48,315 nt of DNA, from the sequence record OR466728.1. The stretch is one strand, 5' to 3'. This DNA comes from Escherichia phage ES. A program made the position numbers and the translations under genes. Position 1 is the first letter of the stretch, and every line of letters starts with the position of its first letter. Below the pieces are notes generated by a model. The model made no database searches, was not told where the DNA came from, and saw nothing but the letters and a program-made list of their open reading frames with translations. Of this stretch, positions 7,877 through 47,751 are shown piece by piece.

Positions 7877-7904
7877 TTGCTACACCTGAAAACTCGTGTA
7901 TAAT
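7877..7904 (+). promoter_or_regulatory. sigma70-type promoter (TTGCTA -16 nt- TATAAT) for the capsid gene
   Basis: near-consensus -35 and perfect -10 with 16-nt spacer, 38 nt upstream of ATG 7942. Confidence 0.5.
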
Positions 7905-7941
7905 TAATCTCGTAATCTATTAACTAAAAGGAAGATACAGA

Positions 7942-8886
7942 ATGGCTATTAAGTTTGACGCTGAACAAGCGAAAATCACTGCTCACCTAGAGCAGATGGG
8001 CGTAGATAAAGCTGACGCCGCTGGCATCTGGACCGTCAAGCAACTGACACAGACCCTGAAGCGCAACTACGAGCGTGAATATACCGACAACTCTGTTGTT
8101 AATATCTTCCCGATCAGTAACGAAATCCCTGCTTCTGCTAAATACTTCGAGTACCCAGAATTCGATGGCGTTTCAATCGCTCAGATTATCGCAGACTACT
8201 CCGATGACCTGCCGCTTGTTGACGCGTTCATGACTGAGAAACAAGGTAAAGTGTTCCGCTTCGGTAACGCATTCCTGATCTCCATCGATGAAATCGCAGC
8301 TGGTGCAGCAACTGGTCAATCTCTGTCTGCTCGTAAACAGGCTCTGGCTTTTGAAGCTCACGACAACCTGCTTGACAAACTGGTATGGTTTGGCTCTGCT
8401 CCGCACGGTATTAACAGCGTATTTAATACCCCCAACGCAAGCCGCGTAACCCCGAACGCATGGGTTGATGCCGCTGCTGCTGTTAACGATATCACTCGAA
8501 TGATTGATGCTATCGAAACTAACACGCAGGGTATGCATACTGCTACTGATATCATTCTGCCAGCCTCCGCTCGCCGCTTGATGCAGCAACTGGTTCCTGG
8601 TACTACGATTAGCTATGCTCAGCTGTTCGCAACTAACAATACCAGCGTAAATATTCGCTATTTGCAGTTCCTGGACGATATTGATGGCGCTGGCACTAAA
8701 GCAGCTCTGGCGTTTGAAAAAGACCCGCTGAACATGAGTATTGAAATTCCTGAGGCAACCCACGTATTGCCGGGTCAGCCGAAAGATTTGCATTTCAAAT
8801 ACCCTGTTACTTCCAAGTCTACAGGTCTGGTTGTTTACCGACCTCTGACTCTTGCTATCATGTCTGGCATCGAAATTACCGCATAA
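7942..8886 (+). CDS. major capsid protein (putative)
   Basis: 314 aa, own strong promoter and terminator, RBS AAAGGAAG, position in head module. Confidence 0.6.
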   Translation: MAIKFDAEQAKITAHLEQMGVDKADAAGIWTVKQLTQTLKRNYEREYTDNSVVNIFPISNEIPASAKYFEYPEFDGVSIAQIIADYSDDLPLVDAFMTEKQGKVFRFGNAFLISIDEIAAGAATGQSLSARKQALAFEAHDNLLDKLVWFGSAPHGINSVFNTPNASRVTPNAWVDAAAAVNDITRMIDAIETNTQGMHTATDIILPASARRLMQQLVPGTTISYAQLFATNNTSVNIRYLQFLDDIDGAGTKAALAFEKDPLNMSIEIPEATHVLPGQPKDLHFKYPVTSKSTGLVVYRPLTLAIMSGIEITA

Positions 8887-10872: not shown

Positions 10873-11532
10873 ATGGCCCATCTCAGCAATGGCACCCAGG
10901 TGTTCGTAGAAGGCACCAGGGGTGATACTATCGACGTAACGGCAATTTCCAACGCTGTTACTCCTGTTTTAACTTTGTCCAGCGTGGCAGACATTGCACG
11001 CGGTGACTACCTGTTGTTTACCAGCTCTGCTTCAACTCTGCTTGCTGATAAGCAAGTTCGCGTTACCGCTGTAACTGGTTCCACTGTAACTGTTGAAGGT
11101 ATTGATACCTCCAGCACCACTAAGTTCCCTGCTGGTTTAACTGGTGAAGTGGTTAAGATTCTTAGCTGGTTTGAGGTTCCTTGCGTTCAAGACGTATCCA
11201 CTGACGGCGGCGAGCAGCAGTTCGTTAACTTCCAGTGTTTGTCCGATAACCGTGAGCAACAGATTCCAACTTACAAGTCCGCGGTAACCAACACCTATAC
11301 GTTCGCGCACGAATACACCAACCCGGTATATCCGATTCTGCGTAACTATGATGAGTCTGGCCAGGTTGTTGCAATTCGCCTGTTCGTACCTCGAGCCAGT
11401 GAAATGCGTCTTCAGTCAGGAACTATCGCTTTCAACGACACCCCGAGCATTGGTGTTAACGAAATCGAAACGGTATCCATCGCTGTTTCTATTCGCGGAA
11501 GGCTAAGTTCCGTAGCTTCTGAGCTAGCATAA
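10873..11532 (+). CDS. major tail protein (putative)
   Basis: 219 aa, RBS AAAAGGAA, followed by strong terminator, directly upstream of the chaperone/tape-measure genes. Confidence 0.55.
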   Translation: MAHLSNGTQVFVEGTRGDTIDVTAISNAVTPVLTLSSVADIARGDYLLFTSSASTLLADKQVRVTAVTGSTVTVEGIDTSSTTKFPAGLTGEVVKILSWFEVPCVQDVSTDGGEQQFVNFQCLSDNREQQIPTYKSAVTNTYTFAHEYTNPVYPILRNYDESGQVVAIRLFVPRASEMRLQSGTIAFNDTPSIGVNEIETVSIAVSIRGRLSSVASELA

Positions 11533-11539
11533 TAACCAA

Positions 11540-11559
11540 CCCTCTTCGGAGGGTTTTTT
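11540..11559 (+). terminator. rho-independent terminator
   Basis: CCCTC/GAGGG stem, TTCG loop, 6 T. Confidence 0.6.
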
Positions 11560-11564
11560 ATTGA

Positions 11565-11582
11565 TAGCACTTTTTGTTAAAG
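11565..11582 (+). promoter_or_regulatory. dyad box copy 3 (TAGCACTTTTTGTTAAAG)
   Basis: TATAGT 22 nt downstream, then CATCGAAAAG; ATG of 11641 is 76 nt downstream. Confidence 0.5.
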
Positions 11583-11640: not shown

Positions 11641-11889
11641 ATGAACAACGTAAAAAACATCATCAAACTTGCCGCTGCTCTTGGTGCTTTCTACCTGGCA
11701 ATTCAGATTGTTAACCCAACTGGTAGCGCAACCGCAAACTCTGATGCAATAAAATATCAGACCAAATTCAATAGCGCATATTCATACTGTGAAAAAGTTG
11801 CTGGCGATAAAGTTAATCAGATTATGACGCATGGTCGCGAAGTGTGCACCGAAGTTGCTCACAACATTGTAAAAAACGAATCAAAGTAA
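11641..11889 (+). CDS. small exported/membrane protein (hypothetical)
   Basis: 82 aa, N-terminal hydrophobic segment LAAALGAFYLAIQIV, two Cys; own promoter box; inserted between major tail and chaperone genes. Confidence 0.5.
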   Translation: MNNVKNIIKLAAALGAFYLAIQIVNPTGSATANSDAIKYQTKFNSAYSYCEKVAGDKVNQIMTHGREVCTEVAHNIVKNESK

Positions 11890-11924
11890 TATAATAATTC
11901 AACATAAACAAAGGAGATAACGAG

Positions 11925-12239
11925 ATGGCAAAATTTAAACTTTCACTAAAGGCGCTGCCTGACTTTAAACTTCCAGTTAAGTTTCAGCTTGCGAATGGTG
12001 AAGATGCGGAAGTGGTACTGACGGTTAAGCACAAGAAATCATCCGAGTTGCAGGAGATTCTTAATCGTGAGAACTTCAGTACTAAAGAATTGATTAACGA
12101 AATCTGCTCTGATTGGGATTTAGAAGAGCCATTTAACGATGAGAACGTAGATGAGTTCACCAACCTTTTTCCGGGCGCTGTGCCATCGTTGATGGATAGC
12201 TACATGAAAGCTCTGGCAGGTCAGCGAGTAAAAAACTAA
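11925..12239 (+). CDS. tail assembly chaperone (G-like)
   Basis: 104 aa immediately upstream of tape measure; ends just after slippery A_AAA_AAC. Confidence 0.6.
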   Translation: MAKFKLSLKALPDFKLPVKFQLANGEDAEVVLTVKHKKSSELQEILNRENFSTKELINEICSDWDLEEPFNDENVDEFTNLFPGAVPSLMDSYMKALAGQRVKN

Positions 12240-12553
12240 AACGCGCAGTATACTTACAATACCAGTCACCGCCAACGGATGCTGAACTCGAAGCTATCGG
12301 AATGAAACGTTCCGATTATGAAGGTGATGAGCCTGAAGAGTTATACTTCGATGAAACAATGATGCAAAGCTGGGATGTGTACTGTGCCATGTCAACTCAA
12401 TGGCGAGTAGGGGCTTGCGGTGCCACAGGCCTTGATTATAATTGCCTTCCATTCTTGTTCAAAGTCTATAAAATAGATGATGACGAAATGGTACTTAACG
12501 ACATCAGAATACTTGAGGCTAAAGCCTTAGATATGATGAACGCCAAGAAATAG
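11925..12553 (+). CDS. tail assembly chaperone frameshift fusion (GT-like), -1 shift at 12230-12236
   Basis: heptamer A_AAA_AAC at 12230-12236; the -1 frame is open from 12236 to 12553 and joins ORF 12302-12553. Confidence 0.55.
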
Positions 12554-12576
12554 CCATCCTTCGGGGTGGCTTTTTT
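12553..12576 (+). terminator. rho-independent terminator
   Basis: GCCATCC/GGGTGGC stem with one wobble, TTCG loop, 6 T. Confidence 0.5.
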
Positions 12577-12590
12577 ATTATGGAGACAAC

Positions 12591-15563
12591 ATGGCAACTA
12601 ACGAAATTGCTGGTATCACGCTAGCCGTCGACGTAGCTCAGGTCGATAAGGGTACGCAATCCTTACAGAAATTCAGGCAAGCAAACGAGCAAGCTGCAAC
12701 AGGCATTAATAGCTTCGTCAACGCCGAACTTGTAGCCAAGACTCAAGCAAGGGACACTGCAAGGCAGCTTGAGGAGCAGCGCAAATCTTTCGCATCACTT
12801 CAGCAAGCCATAGACCCAACCGCTGCTAAATTCCTGAAGTTGCAGAAAGCAGCAACAGATTTGGACAAAGCATTTGAATCCGGGATAGTTCCTGATGATG
12901 AATTCTTCAGGCTTGGCTCTGTTATTGAAACTCAAATCAATAAGCTAAACAGGTCTAAAGCCGCTCTTAGCGAAGAAGGCAGGGCTGCACTACAGGCATC
13001 AATAGATAAAGAGAAAGCAACAACAGCAGCGCAAAAGTTCATTCAATCTCTTGAGAACGAGGCGAATGCAGCAAGCCTGACAAGGACTGAACTTCTTCAG
13101 CTTAAGGCTGCTCAGCTAGGAGTTAGTGACCAGGCTGCACCGATTATCGACAGGATTGGAAAGGCTGCCGAGGCATCTGCGGTACAATTGCAGAAGCAAA
13201 GCTCCGCTTTTGTTAAGTCTGGGCTTAGTGCCGGTCAATACAAGCAAGCAATACGACAGCTACCAGCTCAGATTACAGATATCGGAACATCTCTTGCTGG
13301 CGGCATCCCAATCTGGCTCATTGCAATTCAGCAGGGCGGTCAGATTAAGGATAGTTTTGGTGGCATTGGCAATACAGCAAGGTTTGCATTAGCAGCCATT
13401 AATCCATTAACGGCAGTTGTTGGGACTTTGGGATTGGCTCTTGGTGCTCTTGGTGTTGCAGCTTATCAGGCCGACAAGAATACTCGCGGACTAGCATCAA
13501 CGATAACACTGGTTGGCAACTCAACTATTACATCAACAGCGCAGATAAATCAGGTTGTTGATGGAATCGAGAGCTCAACGCTAGCCACGCGCGGACTTAT
13601 CCAGGAGATAGCTAACAGCCTGGTAGCAAACGGCAATCTAACGCTTACACAGATAGACAAAATAACTAAGGCAACCGCGCAGTGGGCAACTGTAACATCA
13701 ACTGACTCGAAAACTATTCTTGGGTACTTTGACCAGATTACAAAGGACCCAATTCAAGGTCTGATTGCACTCGATAAGCAGTTCAACTTCCTTCAGTCAG
13801 GGCAGTTAAAATACATTGAGAATATCAGGAAGACCGCTGGAGAAACGGAGGCTGTAACAGCAGCTACAGAGCTATTCGCTAACGTTATGGAAAACAGGCT
13901 CGCGGACGTTGCGCTAAGCCTTAACCCGCTTGAAAGTGCATGGAATAGCTTCAGGAAGTTTGTAAGTGAGATCTGGGATGATATAAGCAAAAGGACGCTT
14001 GGGGCGCTTAACTTAATAACTGACGTTGTTGCGGGTACGATTGAGCAGATAAGGTCGTTAATAAACTCCGGTGATATCCTATTAGGCGAGTTTGCAATAG
14101 CCGCAACCAAGACTCTTCAGTCAATCCCTGGACTTGGGGATTTAGGCAATGAGGCAATCGCTGAACAGCAAAAGATTGTTGATGCAGCCAAGAAGCAAAA
14201 TGAGGAGTTAGCAAAAAGCATAGCTGAGCGAGATGCTAGAATCAGGAAGGGTGAGCTTGGTTATGTTGAGAGTAACAATAACACCAACCCGAGCGGCAAC
14301 AAAACATCAACTGATAAGGAGTTCGGAGCAAGGAAGAAGGCGCTAGCTGATGAGCTTGATACAATAAAGAAAGCAAGGAGCGAGAGGAATAAGGCAGTAA
14401 AAGAAGAGAGGGATTTAACTTTATCTTATGAATCTGGTGTTCTTGCTCTTCAGGCTCAGTTAAAGGTTTTACAAGAGCACAAGACGATAAACGATGTAAT
14501 AAGTAACGAACGAAAGCAACTATTCCAGGAGGAAGCAAAGTTTGCAATACTTGAGCAAAGAAAGGCCGATGGCAGCTTAACTAAGTCCCAAGCTAAGCTA
14601 CTTGCTCAGAAGAATATCATTCTTGAACAGGCTAAACAGAAGGCTGAGCTTGGTGACCAGATTGTGCTTCAGGAGAGGTCAAACAAGTTACTTGATGACA
14701 ACCTCAAGAAGACTGTGCAGATTAAGAATGAGGCAAATAATGTTTCGCTTGCTGCTAATTTATCTGACAGGGAGAAGCAGAGGGCAAAAGAGCTTCAGGC
14801 TCTACAGTCCAATCAGGTAAACAAAGGTGGCTCTGTTGATGATACTGACTTTCAGGCTTTACTCGAAGCTAGGCGTAATTTCTATGCTCAAGAGGATGCG
14901 CTACGTGAAAACTGGCTCGCTGGTGTGCAGTCATCCTTCGCAAATTGGGCAGAGAGCGCGACAGATGCTTTCTCAATTGCTGGTGAATTAACAACTTCTG
15001 TCTTTACAGGAATTACGGAGCAGATTACTAGCCTTGTGACAACTGGCACGGCAGACTTCAGGAGTTTTACCGTTGAAATCCTGAAACAGATTGCGAAGAT
15101 TGCTACTCAGCTTCTGATTGTGAAGGCGATTGAGTCAAGCTTAAGTAGCTTTGGTGGCACTGGCGGCGCAATTGGTTCAATTGGTAGCGCTCTTGGCTTT
15201 GCTGGCGGCGGTTATACTGGTGATGGTGGGAAGTATCAACCTGCCGGAACTGTGCACCGCGGTGAGTTTGTATTCACAAAAGAAGCAACAAGCAGAATTG
15301 GCGTTAAGAATCTGTATAAGCTAATGCGAGGTTATGCAAATGGCGGTGCTGTTGGTGGGCCTTCTGGATATGCTAATGGTGGAGTTGTTGGCGGTACTAA
15401 TGTCAGTGTTGGTGGTGTGACGGTTAACGTAAGCTCTGGATTTAGTAGCGGTAATGATGCTAAGGCGATAGAATCTGGAGTCAAGGTTATCGTTGCTGAG
15501 GAAATCAGCAAGTCATTCCAGCAGGGCGGCAGAGCCTTTGCTTATCTGAGGGGTTACAACTAA
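12591..15563 (+). CDS. tail tape measure protein
   Basis: 990 aa, Ala/Gln/Lys-rich coiled-coil body, Gly-rich C-terminal region, follows the G/GT chaperones. Confidence 0.8.
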   Translation: MATNEIAGITLAVDVAQVDKGTQSLQKFRQANEQAATGINSFVNAELVAKTQARDTARQLEEQRKSFASLQQAIDPTAAKFLKLQKAATDLDKAFESGIVPDDEFFRLGSVIETQINKLNRSKAALSEEGRAALQASIDKEKATTAAQKFIQSLENEANAASLTRTELLQLKAAQLGVSDQAAPIIDRIGKAAEASAVQLQKQSSAFVKSGLSAGQYKQAIRQLPAQITDIGTSLAGGIPIWLIAIQQGGQIKDSFGGIGNTARFALAAINPLTAVVGTLGLALGALGVAAYQADKNTRGLASTITLVGNSTITSTAQINQVVDGIESSTLATRGLIQEIANSLVANGNLTLTQIDKITKATAQWATVTSTDSKTILGYFDQITKDPIQGLIALDKQFNFLQSGQLKYIENIRKTAGETEAVTAATELFANVMENRLADVALSLNPLESAWNSFRKFVSEIWDDISKRTLGALNLITDVVAGTIEQIRSLINSGDILLGEFAIAATKTLQSIPGLGDLGNEAIAEQQKIVDAAKKQNEELAKSIAERDARIRKGELGYVESNNNTNPSGNKTSTDKEFGARKKALADELDTIKKARSERNKAVKEERDLTLSYESGVLALQAQLKVLQEHKTINDVISNERKQLFQEEAKFAILEQRKADGSLTKSQAKLLAQKNIILEQAKQKAELGDQIVLQERSNKLLDDNLKKTVQIKNEANNVSLAANLSDREKQRAKELQALQSNQVNKGGSVDDTDFQALLEARRNFYAQEDALRENWLAGVQSSFANWAESATDAFSIAGELTTSVFTGITEQITSLVTTGTADFRSFTVEILKQIAKIATQLLIVKAIESSLSSFGGTGGAIGSIGSALGFAGGGYTGDGGKYQPAGTVHRGEFVFTKEATSRIGVKNLYKLMRGYANGGAVGGPSGYANGGVVGGTNVSVGGVTVNVSSGFSSGNDAKAIESGVKVIVAEEISKSFQQGGRAFAYLRGYN

Positions 15564-18108: not shown

Positions 18109-21100
18109 ATGGCACAAATGGTCAAAACAAATACGGAGCTATGTGATATGGCACAAGATATTAAGATTTATGGGAGTAAGGGCGGTAGCCAGAAACAGAG
18201 ACAGCCTGTTGAGCAACCTGACAACCTGGTATCTGTAAACAAGGTTAAAGTACTTTTGGCGGTAGCGGATGGTGAGGTTGATAGTTCTTTTTCACTTCGT
18301 GATTTGTACCTGGCTGATGTTCCCGTTCAGAATGCAGATGGTACTTTAAACTACGAAGGAGTCACGGCTGAATTTAGGCCGGGAACTCAAGATCAGGATT
18401 ATATTCCTGGACTTGACGGTGCTAACTCGGAGGTTCAGGTTAGCCGAGAAATCACCAACAGCACTCCTTACATTATTGCCGTTAACAACAGTCAGCTATC
18501 GGCAATTAGGGTTAAGTTGTTTTGGCCAAGACTGATTAGCCAAGAAAGTAATGGCGACCTTAATGGCACTACGTGCGAGTACGCGATTGACTTATCTGTT
18601 GATGGCGCAACTTACACTGAATACACGCGCGGCGTAGCTAATGGCAAGACAACTAGCGGATACGACAGAAGTATCAGGGTTAACCTTCCAGCGGAGTTCT
18701 CTAGCGCACTGGTAAGGATTCGAAAGATTACGGCAGATTCAGAAAGTTCTACGCTGGTTAACGACATGCAAATTACGACCTATCAGGAAGTAATTGATGC
18801 TAAATTCCGCTACCCACTTACAGCGCTGGTTTACGTTGAGTTCAGTTCTGACCTCTTCCCTAACGGAATCCCGACGATTTCAATCAAGAAGAAGTGGAAG
18901 TTGATTCGCGTTCCAACTAACTACAACCCAGAGACAAGGACTTACAGCGGAACCTGGAACGGCACCTTTAAGATGGCGTATTCCAATAACCCGGCGTGGG
19001 TTCTTTACGACTTGGTGACGAATCAGCGTTACGGACTTGACCAGCGAGAGCTTGGCATTACTATTGATAAGTGGGGTCTGTATGAGGCGGCGCAATTCTG
19101 TGACCAGATGGTTCCAGATGGTAAGGGTGGAGTTGAGCCGCGCTACCTGTGTGATGTTGTCATTCAGCAGAAAGTTGAAGCATATCAGGTAATCCGTGAT
19201 ATTTGCTCTATCTTCCGTGGGCTGACATTCTATGACGGCGAGCAGATAGGGATTGTTGTCGATAAGCCGCGTCAACCATCGTACGTATTCACCAATGACA
19301 ACGTTGTTGATGGATTGTTCAACCGTACATTTGGTAGCGATAAGTCACTTTACACGGTTGCCAACGTTCAGTTTGATGACGTTGAAAACTCATACCAACA
19401 GGATGTTGAGCCAGTATTCGAGTTAGAGGCAACAAGGCGTTTTGGTTACAACCCGGTCGACCTTACAGCTATTGGATGTACTCGCAGGAGTGAGGCAAAC
19501 CGCCGCGGGCGCTGGTTATTAAAGACGAACATTCGCAGCGAGACTATTAGTTTCACTACTGGTCTGGAAGGTATGATTCCAATGATTGGTGAGGTTATTG
19601 CAGTTAATGACCAGGCATGGTCTAGCAACTACACCCTTAACCTTTCTGGTCGTATCGAGTCAGTAAGTGGGTTGCAAGTTTTTGTGCCATTTAAGATTGA
19701 TGCTACTGCTGGCGACAGGATTCTAATAAACAAGCCTGATGGAATGCCAGAGTACAGGACCATTGCATCTGTATCTGAAGATGGTATGACGCTGCAACTT
19801 AATACAGCGTTTAGCTTTACTCCTCAGCCTGACACAGTATTTGCGATTGATAAGGAAAATCTTGCTCTTCAGCAATATGTTGTGACCGGGATTCAAAAAG
19901 CAGACAGCGATGGAGACGATGCGTTCGGTTACAGCATTACGGCAGTCGAGTACGACCCGAATAAATACGACGAAATTGATTACGGCGTAAACATTCAGGA
20001 TAGGCCATCGTCAATCGTTGAACCTGACACGCTACTTGCCCCAGAAAATGTTCAGGTGAGCAGCTACAGCAAGGTTGTGCAGGGTTTATCAGTTGAAACA
20101 ATGGTAATCACCTGGGACAAAGTTCAGTACGCCAAGACTTACACGGTACAGTGGCGTAAGGAGAACGGAAACTGGATTAACGTACCGCGCACAGCAAACA
20201 CAGAAGTTGATATTGAAGGTATTTATGCTGGTATTTATCAGGTTCGCGTGAGGGCTGTTTCTGATACTGAAAACGTATCCGCATGGTCTGACATTGTTTC
20301 AGCAAGCCTAACTGGTAAAATTGGAACGCCGTCTGAGCCTACGGTAATCACAGCTTCAGATGATGAAATATTCGGCATTAGGGTTAAGTGGGGATTTCCT
20401 GAAAACTCAGCCGATACGTCATACACTGAATTGCAGCAAGTAGCCGACAATGGTGATGGTACTTACTCACCAGAGAACGCCAGTTTGTTAACGCTAGTTC
20501 CTTACCCGGGTTACGAGTATTGGCACACTACATTGCCGGCAGGAAAGGTTATCTGGTACAGGGCGCGACTGATTGACAAGATTGGTAACGTCTCACCATG
20601 GACTGATTTTGTAAGGGGTATGGCAAGCGATGATGTGTCGTCAATCATTGGTGATATTAAGGTTGATATAGAAAACTCAGATGGGTTCAAGTATCTCCAA
20701 CAGAATGCCATTGAGTCAAACGGAGCTATTCAGGCGCAAGCGGAATCAATAATTGAGAACGCCCTGGCTAATGATGGTGACGTGCGTAGAATGACGAAGG
20801 AAAACGGCAAGAGGAAGGCCGAATTTGTTCAGGCTGTGAATCTTATCGCCGATGAAGAAAGGGCTCGCGTAGAGGCTCTGACGCAGCTTAAAGCGCAGAT
20901 TGATGATGAGATTGTGGCTTCGTTGACAAGGATTGATACGGCGCTAGCGGAAGAAACGCAAGCAAGGACCACTGCGGACACTGCTTTATCTGCAAGGCTC
21001 GGTGAGAATGAAGCTGCTTTAAATGAGAAGCTGGATACTTACGTTACAGCTGATTCAATTGGTGCGCAGTACGGCATTAAGCTGGGTCTTACTTACAATG

Positions 21101-30371: not shown

Positions 30372-33300
30372 ATGCTTCCAGTAGAGCGCTTAGTGGCAAA
30401 CTTTGATCAAGAGAAAATCAAACAGATTCAGAAAGATTACCAGTTTGGAGACATAACTCCTTACGAATTCCAGTGTGTAACATTTGACGCAATTGGTAAG
30501 GCTATTGGTAAGTACGAGGCTCCATTCATCGCAGACCTGTCTGTATCTGCTGGTAAAACAATAATTCTTGCCATGATTGGGAAAAGAATGGAGCAACTTG
30601 GACTTCCTTATATGGTACTGTCTCGCCAGTCAGAGATTATCAGCCAGAACGCAGAGGAACTCCGTAACTTCGGTATCCGTAATAGCGTCTATTGCGCTGG
30701 ACTTAACGTTAAATCAGTTTACTACCCAACCATAGTGGCTAGTGAGGGTACAGCTGCCAATGGCCTGTTTAAGGGGCTTGGTGACTATGTTCCTGCTGTT
30801 ATCGCGATAGATGAGTGCTTAACTGGAGACACGATGATAACCACCGATTCAGGGATGATGAGGATTGATAGCGAAGACCTTATCAATCATAAAATAAAAT
30901 GCATAAACGAAAGCACTGGTGATTACTTCTATCATAAGCCAAAAAGAGTTTTTACTAATGGTGTAAGACATGTATCATCAATTAAATTAGAAAGCGGAGA
31001 GGAAATAAAATGCACGAGTACACACAAACTTTATTCGAACGGCTGCTGGGTAGGAGCGGGAAAACTTCGTATTGGGATGAATCTGTCGCTAGACGGCTCG
31101 CAGGACAAATTTACGAAAAAGCTCCTGCGTGCAAGTGTGGCTGTGGTGAAAAAGTTATGCCGCATTCAAGCAAGGGGTTAGGCGTACTTCTTAAGAACCC
31201 TTTCGATTTCTATTTGGATTACAGAACGGGGCATCATAATTCAACCGTCAACCCATCAATGGAGGTTGATGACTTTTTACATCAAAACATTCTTGCGGCA
31301 ATGGCTGGTGATGGTTGCTTGATTAAAAATACAGAAAAAGGAACGCATAGGCTATCTTGGAATATGGGAAATAAGGAGCACGCACTAAGCAAGGTTGAAA
31401 GGTTTGCAAAACTAAACCCTAGATACAGGGAGAAGAAAAACCCTGGATTTGGCGACAACTGGTTTTGCGTATCAACATCATGTACGAAAGTTCTGGATTC
31501 ATATGCTGATAAGTACGGAAATTCTAAGGATGGTTACGATATTGGAAAGATATGCAGAGAGCTTGATCCAGTTGGTTGGGCTGCTTACTTTGGTGATGAT
31601 GGTCATTGCACTGTAAGCTCAGGGAAGAGGGTTGTAGAAATCCACACCGAATCATTTAGCAGGCGTGAAGTTCAATCAGTAGTTGATGCGCTAATAGCAT
31701 TTATTGCTAATGACGGAGTTAATGTTAGAAGCTATATTGGCGGCAAGAAAAAGAGAGAGCTTTACTCAGTATCAATAACAACGAGGTCGGCACAAGATGA
31801 GTTTTTTAAGAGAATTAGTAAGCACATGGAAAATGGCGTGGAATACAAAATCAAGCAAAATTAAAGACATCTCACCCATTGGCAAGGAACTTGTTTGGGA
31901 TATAGAGATGCCTGAGCACCATAATTTCATTGCTGACGGGGTCGTGGCACATAATTGCCACATGGTGGACCATATGGATATCGTAGAAGCTGAAGAGAAT
32001 GAGGAAACATTCGAGCAGATGAGCACGAAGAAGGGTGAGATGGTCTTTAAGGATGGTGTGAATACCGGGCTTCTTGGCACTGGTCGCGCGCAATACACGT
32101 TAATCATTACCGAAATGAAGCGTCGATGCAAGGAGAAGTACGGTCGCGAACTTCGTATCTTTGGGTTAACTGGTAGCCCGTACCGTAACAACGACCACAT
32201 TGTAGTTAGTAACCCAAATGTCCGTGGATTCTGGCGCAAAACTGTAATGCAAGTGCCAACCAGCTACCTTGTTGACTTGGGGTTCGTTGTTCCTACTGTC
32301 TACGGTGAAGTTGGTGATTTGGGCTACGACCTTAGTGAGTTCACTCCTGATGGAAGTGATGGGGTTAAGGACTTCAGCAAGAAAGAAATGGATGCGATGG
32401 CTGCAAAGATTCACGAAAACCAAACGATGACACAAAAGATAATGGGATTTGCTGCTAGGTTTATGGAAACAAGGAATGCTGCATTGGTAACTTGCGCTGG
32501 CAAACAGCATTGCGAGGAGGCGGCAGCCGCACTTCCAGAAGGTGTTACTTGGGCGATAGTTACCAACTCCACTGGTGATAAGAAGCGTAGAGAGATACTT
32601 GAGAAGGCAGCCAGCGGAGAATATAAGTTCATATTTCAGATTGGTTGCCTCACAACTGGCGTAAACTGCCCCCCGTGGGATACAAGCATTATCCTGAGGA
32701 AGGTTGGTAGCATTACTCTACTCATTCAGTTGCTTGGTCGTGGTATGCGTATCCTTAAGAAGAAGCACAAAGAAGCTGGAATGGTAAAAGATGACCATGT
32801 TGTTCTTGATTTTGCCGGGACGCTTGACGATATGGCAGAACTCTACTTCGACCCAATTATAGAAGAGGTTCAGGACCAGAAGTTTAAGTCATCCAGGAAA
32901 GGGGGTGATGAACCAAGAATTTGCCCAGCATGTTCTTATGAGAATTCTCCTTTCGCACGGCGCTGTAATAATGTGATTGACGGTAAACGATGCGAGCATT
33001 TTTTTCAGTTCCGTCTTTGCGAAGATATTGAGGACCCGCAGACGAAAGTTATCGTTAAGAAAGGTTGCGGAGAGAAAAATGACGTTGCAGCAAAGAACTG
33101 CCGCTGCTGCGGAGAGATGCTGATAGACCCAAATGCAAAGCTATCTGGAAAAATGTATCGGAAAGGGGACTGGTTGAGAGTTTATGACTTCAAGATTGGG
33201 TTGACAAAAAACCAGTCAGGGATCGTTGCTTCATATGAGGTAATGGCTCATAGTGGAGATAAGTTCCGAGCTTATGAAACATTCTTCCCGGAGTCAGACC

Positions 33301-33506
33301 ATCGTGTTTGTTCTGTCAAATGGAAGGCGTTTTGCTCAACTCACATCGAGAACAGGACTGAGGCTTTTAGGATTGGCAGATTGCGTAATGCTAAAATGAT
33401 TATGACAAATGCACATCTTTTCCGTGCGCCGCTAAGGATTACGCACCGCAAGAATCAGAAGTCGCAAGATATTATCGCCAACAAATCATTTACGATGGAG
33501 GATTGA
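30372..33506 (+). CDS. SF2 DExH-box DNA helicase, interrupted by an intein (exteins 30372-30815 and 31956-33506)
   Basis: Walker A SVSAGKT; motif II DE|CH restored on excision; three track ORFs (30372, 31010, 31797) belong to one gene. Confidence 0.75.
30816..31955 (+). mobile_element. intein with LAGLIDADG homing-endonuclease domain (1140 nt, 380 codons)
   Basis: starts CLTGDTMI, block B TSTHKL, LAGLIDADG-like ILAAMAGDGCL and AAYFGDDGHC, ends NFIADGVVAHN before +1 Cys; endonuclease domain is in a different frame. Confidence 0.8.
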
Positions 33507-47675: not shown

Positions 47676-47751
47676 GTTCTGCTGGCGTAACAGGATAACG
47701 CAAAGACCTCCTAAGTCTTAGTTACTGGTTCGAGTCCAGTGCGGAACACCA
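47676..47751 (+). tRNA. tRNA-Arg (anticodon CCT)
   Basis: hand-folded cloverleaf: 7-bp acceptor GTTCTGC/GCGGAAC, D-arm GCGT/ACGC with GG loop, anticodon loop CTCCTAA, T-arm ACTGG-TTCGAGT-CCAGT, discriminator A, encoded CCA. Confidence 0.8.

Follow-up and report, generated by a model that had tools for sequence, protein, structure and literature searches.

A highly probable site of programmed -1 ribosomal frameshifting in the gene for the tail assembly chaperone of a T1-like Escherichia phage

In phage lambda, the overlapping reading frames G and T are joined by a -1 slip that takes place shortly before G ends and gives rise to the minor fusion protein GT. There, G binds the tape measure protein and T binds the tube protein, with a ratio of about 30:1 (PMC5009743, summarising Levin, Hendrix and Casjens 1993; Xu, Hendrix and Duda 2004, 2013, 2014). 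Among T1-like phages, the tape measure chaperones of Stevie and Solomon were described in the genome announcements as having a "conserved translational frameshift", while the frameshifts mentioned in the LAPAZ paper concern a host mutation and not the chaperone. Joined coding sequences with ribosomal slippage have been annotated at the orthologous site in T1, TLS (as tfmS) and OzMSK, all of these annotations being non-experimental. In T1 (AY216660) the short product CPTT1_038 spans 18872..19189 and CPTT1_039, termed "tape measure chaperone, frameshift product", spans 18872..19506, with the heptamer located at 19180. An experimental demonstration of GT in a T1-like phage was not found in our literature searches.

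Frameshifting on A-runs is also known from Escherichia coli itself. In dnaX, an upstream Shine-Dalgarno-like element and a downstream hairpin accompany a shift of high efficiency. The heptamer A_AAA_AAC is a low-efficiency motif in E. coli, because the re-pairing from AAC to AAA in the A site is poorly tolerated (PMC4066793). It is, however, among those motifs which give more than 0.10% frameshifting without any stimulators (PMC4066793).

In this study, a stretch of 48,315 nucleotides from Escherichia phage ES (OR466728.1), in the following called the window, was analysed computationally. Over the region compared, its identity to Escherichia phage AN_ECEAS (PP944860.1; Drexlerviridae, Braunvirinae) amounts to 100%. 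From its sequence and that of its relatives it appears highly probable that the tail assembly chaperone gene of this T1-like siphophage contains a programmed -1 ribosomal frameshift site. A previous sequence-only reading had placed an AAAAAAC slip site at 12230-12236, and both the sequence and the phase of the open reading frame 11925-12239 bear this out. The 3' end of this frame, which encodes 104 amino acids, reads ...CGA GTA AAA AAC TAA. As position 12230 is the third base of the codon GTA, the heptamer lies in the canonical phase A_AAA_AAC. The final two sense codons of G are AAA and AAC, immediately followed by the stop codon at 12237-12239, so that the earlier placement of the heptamer two codons before the stop is correct for the AAA codon. 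The -1 frame, which had been described as open from 12236 to 12553 and as merging with the open reading frame 12302-12553, does so indeed, yet its opening begins further upstream: after a TAG at 12197-12199 it is open from 12200 up to the stop codon at 12551-12553. Position 12236 shares its frame with the ATG at 12302, which is 66 nt away. All features of the locus are compiled in Table 1.

Table 1. Positions of the features at the chaperone locus and in the apparently split helicase region of the window.
Feature	Position	Strand	Remarks
Major tail (tube) protein gene	10873..11532	+	Pfam Phage_tail_3, E 1.4e-67
G, tail assembly (tape measure) chaperone, 104 aa	11925..12239	+	From the list of open reading frames; PF08748 Phage_TAC_4, E 1.1e-32, full length
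GT, predicted 209-aa frameshift fusion	11925..12553	+	Conceptual translation; G residues 1-104 plus 105 residues of T
Overlap	12200..12239	+	13 codons; sole stretch in which a -1 shift from G would enter the open T frame
Slippery heptamer A_AAA_AAC	12230..12236	+	In phase with G; found unchanged at this place in 58 of 97 distinct relatives, T1 and TLS among them
G stop codon TAA	12237..12239	+	Directly 3' of the heptamer; overlaps the first -1 codons CTA AAA (Leu-Lys)
T segment, 105 codons plus stop, -1 frame	12236..12553	+	PF08809 DUF1799, E 1.7e-14; C-terminal half of the predicted GT
Linker, 22 codons of the -1 frame, LKRAVYLQYQSPPTDAELEAIG	12236..12301	+	Predicted to be expressible only by frameshift
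Terminator-like hairpin with T-run	12552..12581	+	Between the T stop codon and the start of the tape measure gene
Tape measure protein gene	12591..15563	+	Pfam TMP_2, E 1.4e-48; Tape_meas_lam_C, E 2.7e-19
ORF1, helicase N-part and N-intein (intein part about 120 aa)	30372-31181	+	Frame 0 stops at 31181
ORF2, free-standing LAGLIDADG endonuclease, -1 frame	31157(31010)-31864	+	Probable start ATG 31157
ORF3, 41-aa C-intein fused to the remaining helicase	31833(31797)-33506	+	Frame 0 reopens; conserved Met 31833

When the plus strand frames of at least 80 aa were scanned, in-phase XXXYYYZ motifs occurred at a background rate of 0.0034 per codon. About 0.04 such motifs would be expected by chance in an overlap of 13 codons, and the overlap does contain a single one, the heptamer at 12230. 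This heptamer is also the only one in the window which lies in phase, no more than 15 codons from the end of its frame, and in front of a -1 extension of at least 50 aa.

Standard decoding of the upstream frame yields G. With 113.2 bits for Phage_TAC_4 (gathering cut-off 21.1) and 54.2 bits for DUF1799 (cut-off 26), the Pfam scores of G and T are well above the respective thresholds, and no other Pfam matches were obtained for either of them at E-values up to 0.1. Both segments furthermore align to one and the same protein family of fusion length, phrog_17368 (213 positions), in which G covers the positions 1-107 and T the positions 109-211 (T: E 6e-50). A search of a PDB copy (E up to 1) did not reveal a solved structure for any sequence relative of GT. 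The G/T locus is flanked by the tail tube gene and the tape measure gene, with an extra open reading frame of 82 aa (11641-11889) in front of G. The gene location, the -1 overlap lacking a conserved start of T, the in-phase X_XXY_YYZ motif and the coding selection acting on both frames are those of the G/GT class as defined by Xu, Hendrix and Duda 2004. The idea that the locus encodes the conserved G/GT pair of long-tailed phages is supported by the two Pfam families, by the position of the locus, by the -1 relation in 95 of 97 relatives, by the frame switch described below and by the annotations of T1, TLS and OzMSK.

Several further observations were made in the vicinity of the chaperone genes. 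A second terminator-like GC hairpin with a T-run is present at 11538-11565 (+), directly after the tail tube gene, and together with the hairpin at 12552-12581 it brackets the chaperone unit. A promoter-like arrangement, TTGTAA-17-TATAAT, is found at 11867-11895 just upstream of G. The 82-aa frame on the plus strand belongs to phrog_22925, has no Pfam match and exhibits a hydrophobic N-terminal stretch, IIKLAAALGAFYLAIQIV. Homologues of it were detected solely in those loci that resemble the window most (G at least 67% identical), with the exception of the locus L006, whereas T1, TLS, Webervirus and other clades yielded none. The window contains a single detectable tRNA gene, a tRNA-Arg with the anticodon CCT (47676-47751, +). 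As only this tRNA-Arg(CCT) was found, an altered decoding of Lys or Asn codons by a phage-encoded tRNA was rejected as an explanation.

A tblastn search with the conceptual fusion protein yielded 912 phage records covering at least 80% of it, and in all such matches listed the alignment consisted of two pieces in two frames. For a closer comparison, annotated relatives and 88 IMG/VR loci were combined, resulting in 97 distinct G-T regions. T is located in the -1 frame in 95 of them. The complete heptamer A_AAA_AAC, directly followed by TAA, is present in 58 of the 97 regions, whose G proteins are between 30 and 98% identical to that of the window. In another 33 regions the -1 architecture is intact and a bare tetramer A_AAR occupies the same position. 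These comprise 27 regions with A_AAA_GTY and TAA, the type of the Webervirus phages PKP126 and NJS2, five with A_AAG_GTC and TAA, the type of the Rogunavirus phiKP26, and one with A_AAA_ATC and TAA; Tunavirus ISF001 is also among the relatives of the tetramer type. Four distant relatives (Pseudomonas, Ralstonia and Xanthomonas phages and a faecal contig) contain G_GGA_AAY at the same place. The frame relation is broken in merely two of the 97 regions, those of phage 2725-N35 and of one IMG/VR locus. In phage 2725-N35 (MN840485.1, locus 1940-1986) five A residues replace the six at the slip site; G therefore overruns its normal end by about 15 out-of-frame codons, and T leaves the -1 frame. Either the homopolymer was misread in sequencing or the indel is real.

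Among 20 sequences compared in detail, positions 1-3 of the heptamer as well as the TAA are invariant, while the codon which provides position 1 varies between Val (GTA), Ala (GCA) and Glu (GAA). The TAA following the slip site is invariant in all Drexlerviridae-type relatives. Two other in-phase copies of GTAAAAAAC, at 11650-11658 and 11869-11877, both inside the 82-aa frame, provide a control. In relatives these read GTT AAA AAC or GCA AAA GAA AAC, i.e., their A-runs are not conserved, and the -1 frames at 11650 and 11869 close after 18 and 5 codons, respectively. Three in-phase copies of GTAAAAAAC (11650, 11869 and 12228) within 600 nt, against 0.39 expected per strand, could point to recoding at multiple sites, but this idea was discarded as the first two are not conserved; on the evidence of the relatives, they are chance Val-Lys-Asn codons. 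Given its conservation in relatives, the slip site at the end of G goes far beyond what chance would produce. One could nevertheless argue that the heptamer merely consists of chance A-rich Lys-Asn codons and that T is a decaying, unexpressed remnant. AAAAAAC indeed occurs seven times on the plus strand, with about six occurrences expected from the base composition, and T is not annotated in PP944860.1. However, purifying selection acts on T across relatives in which the identity of G to that of the window is no more than 30-98%, and positions 1-3 of the heptamer are invariant, whereas the two control copies do vary at the corresponding synonymous site. Decay is thus exceedingly improbable.

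The selection on both frames can be followed across the slip site. In the 44 nt before the heptamer, the mean pairwise variability at the three codon positions of the G frame amounts to 0.25/0.19/0.65. In the 63 nt past the stop codon of G, the corresponding values for the -1 frame are 0.29/0.21/0.54, and further downstream they are 0.16/0.20/0.57. As the high variability of third positions changes its frame at the heptamer, purifying selection switches frames exactly there. The translation of the -1 frame starts with L-[KR]-[RK]-A-V-Y-L in nearly all Drexlerviridae and is conserved from its first codon. Lack of conservation of the downstream frame had been named in advance as one part of what would refute frameshifting; the frame turned out to be conserved in relatives from the first -1 codon onwards.

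Alternatively, T could be produced without any recoding, as a separate 83-aa protein starting from the ATG at 12302, in which case the overlap with G would be incidental. Such an ATG does exist, the corresponding form (12302-12553) has been annotated in close relatives ("TfmS" in CY1 and IMM-001), and the annotators of OzMSK recorded an "independent RBS" for the downstream part. This scenario is nonetheless very unlikely. The 22 codons in front of the ATG show conservation at the protein level and the codon periodicity of the -1 frame, and in the window no ATG, GTG or TTG is present in this frame between 12236 and 12302. A conserved linker without a start codon cannot be expressed by independent initiation. 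Moreover, T1, TLS, tonnikala, Ec_L1, PKP126 and phiES15 have a Leu, Phe or Ser codon in place of the ATG, which corresponds to Met23 of the T segment, and the annotated starts of T differ among relatives. No Shine-Dalgarno sequence precedes the ATG at 12302 (-1.8 kcal/mol, compared with -8.7 kcal/mol for the start of G). Finally, a start at 12302 offers no reason for 95 of 97 relatives to have retained the slip motif together with the -1 relation. Independent initiation at 12302 was therefore rejected as the main route, but it may occur in addition to frameshifting.

The same GT protein could in principle also result from transcriptional slippage, i.e., from an mRNA into which RNA polymerase has inserted an extra A at the run of six. 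A homopolymeric A-run is a substrate for polymerase slippage, an insertion of one nucleotide causes the same change of frame, and the five A residues in phage 2725-N35 indicate that the run is prone to indels at some level, be it sequencing or replication. On the other hand, productive slippage by bacterial RNA polymerase needs about eight to nine or more A or T residues, for which a run of six is too short. Furthermore, the 33 of 97 relatives with only four A residues, or three followed by G, retain the layout of G with T in the -1 frame, which fits with tRNA-Lys slipping on A_AAR and not with polymerase stuttering. The motif used by the distant relatives, G_GGA_AAY, is likewise a ribosomal one. 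Transcriptional slippage is consequently considered highly improbable.

Ribosomal frameshifting at the heptamer, which remains the preferred explanation, would proceed as follows. Most ribosomes would read 11925-12239, terminate at the TAA and release the 104-aa G. A minority would slip backwards by one base on the A-run at 12230-12236, take CTA at 12236 as the next codon and read on to 12553, thereby producing the 209-aa GT. Two modes of slippage are conceivable. A tandem slip of tRNA-Lys and tRNA-Asn on A_AAA_AAC would result in a VKN-LKR junction (...ALAGQRVKNLKRAVYLQYQSPPTD), while a slip of tRNA-Lys alone on A_AAA would result in a VKK-LKR junction (...ALAGQRVKKLKRAVYLQYQSPPTD). As one third of the relatives do not contain the second half of the heptamer, the tandem slip cannot be the mechanism of the entire family. 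These relatives keep only A_AAR, so that the core shared by the family would be the slippage of tRNA-Lys(UUU). Indeed, the invariant element across Drexlerviridae is not the heptamer but the tetramer A_AAR, one codon away from the invariant TAA, which suggests that slippage of tRNA-Lys alone is the common denominator in these phages. It is possible, although rather doubtful, that the whole family including this phage shifts by tRNA-Lys(UUU) alone, without RNA structure and with a VKK-LKR junction, AAC being a neutral or modulating second codon. If this were true, the family would represent a large and easily manipulated natural series for minimal unstimulated -1 frameshifting and for the tuning of the GT:G ratio.

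A downstream stimulatory structure, for which the sequence-only reading had suggested to look, was recovered neither by folding nor from the consensus of relatives. The predicted folds of 12237-12330 and 12237-12290 are no better than those of shuffled sequences (z-scores of -1.09 and -0.68, respectively), and RNAalifold returned 0 pairs for the region downstream of the slip site in 12 relatives. As an upstream Shine-Dalgarno-like stimulator, GCAGGT was considered and rejected: its anti-Shine-Dalgarno pairing of -6.7 kcal/mol falls into the 14th percentile of the background, and the values in relatives (-3.2 to -6.0 kcal/mol) show that it is not conserved. With neither a downstream structure nor an upstream Shine-Dalgarno-like element detectable, the site differs from stimulated -1 frameshift sites of the dnaX or IS3 type. 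RNA structure would not be needed for the slip in the proposed mechanism; in E. coli the motif is by its nature a weak one and would probably act at the per-cent level or below. That no stimulator was found agrees with the literature on A_AAA_AAC. A low yield is also what a G/GT system needs (lambda ratio of about 30:1, PMC5009743). By analogy to lambda, the G part of both G and GT would coat the tape measure protein, and the T part of the rare GT would recruit the tail tube protein. A low and fixed GT:G ratio would then be set by decoding and not by transcription.

The genome-wide scan for heptamers additionally flagged an in-phase G_GGA_AAA at 31058-31064, in the overlap of the first helicase frame with an endonuclease frame. 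As a recoding site this motif was rejected. The Pectobacterium homologue has not kept its Gly-Lys codons, so that the motif is probably due to chance, and the overlap of the reading frames is explained by an arrangement of a split intein and a homing endonuclease. The T1 helicase aligns in one frame to 30375-30818 and 31914-33503, with an insert of 1,095 nt in between which is located in the DExH box. The intein junctions are canonical (...AIDE|CLTGDT... and ...VVAHN|CHMV...). On the separate reading frames, the intein models TIGR01445 (33 bits, cut-off 24.5) and TIGR01443 (25.1 bits, cut-off 15.6) score above their curated cut-offs, and the concatenated intein halves match Pfam Intein_splicing from end to end (50.2 bits, cut-off 35.8). 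All close Drexlerviridae relatives are without the 1,095-nt insert. The identical layout of three frames (0/-1/0) is found in the Pectobacterium phages Abuela, Ymer, Koroua, Sabo and Amona at 44-56% protein identity, and its presence in these five phages argues against a sequencing error. The DNA helicase gene (30372-33506) thus appears to be a "fractured gene", and we infer from its sequence that the helicase is trans-spliced. The arrangement matches the "fractured gene" of Dassa et al. 2009 (PMC2677866), but the endonuclease is of the LAGLIDADG type in the window and of the GIY-YIG or Vsr-like type in that study (PMC2677866). In PP944860.1 the first helicase piece is labeled "hypothetical protein", the second has no label and the third is labeled "DNA helicase".

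Concerning the chaperone genes, G is annotated in PP944860.1 as "tail assembly chaperone", and the region from 12240 to 12590 (7880-8230 in that record) is without any feature. Many relatives carry G and T as "hypothetical protein" or under the incorrect name "tail length tape measure protein", a label used by PHROG and RefSeq. As T1, TLS and OzMSK carry joined coding sequences at the site, the feature is already known for the family. The predicted frameshift is hence an ordinary and strongly conserved feature, missing only from this phage's own record. What is modestly new is that putative slip sites of the heptamer and the tetramer type interchange at one fixed position across the family. 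The practical value of these findings lies chiefly in annotation, and the G/GT paradigm is otherwise unchanged. Lambda cannot assemble its tails without the GT fusion, and a correct gene model therefore matters for the engineering or production of this phage. By the same analogy, tail assembly would be expected to be lost if the A-run were codon-optimised or recoded synonymously.

Compared with known systems, the locus has the same architecture and presumed logic as G and GT of lambda: two overlapping frames are located between the genes for the tail tube and the tape measure, and slippage by -1 shortly before G ends leads to a minor fusion in lambda and would do so in the window. However, gpG and gpT of lambda belong to families other than Phage_TAC_4 and DUF1799, and their slip site, G_GGA_AAG, is a strong motif in E. 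coli, whereas A_AAA_AAC in the window is a weak one. The function of the lambda pair has been proven experimentally, while that of the pair in the window is predicted. The gamma and tau forms of E. coli dnaX also depend on tRNA-Lys(UUU) slipping back by one base within an A-run (PMC5009743). There, however, the motif is A_AAA_AAG (PMC5009743) and not A_AAA_AAC, stimulators of the dnaX type are both undetectable at the site in the window, and the shifted product is the shorter form in dnaX but would be the longer one here. The identical heptamer A_AAA_AAC is used in the same host by InsAB' of IS1, for which a -1 shift of low efficiency without an established stimulator has been proven (PMC4066793). 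The proteins of IS1 are unrelated, and the shift limits transposase in IS1, while in the window it would set the ratio of the chaperones.

The closest counterparts are the T1 chaperones and tfmA/tfmS of TLS, which are orthologous to the pair described here, as they share the Pfam families, the locus, A_AAA_AAC with the following TAA and the -1 relation. G of the window is 46% identical to that of T1 and 54% identical to that of TLS, and T is 56-68% identical. Unlike T1 and TLS, the clade of the window carries the extra 82-aa reading frame before G and an ATG at codon 23 of T. In T1, a rho-independent terminator has been annotated after T (19508-19527), at the place equivalent to that of the terminator-like hairpin in the window.
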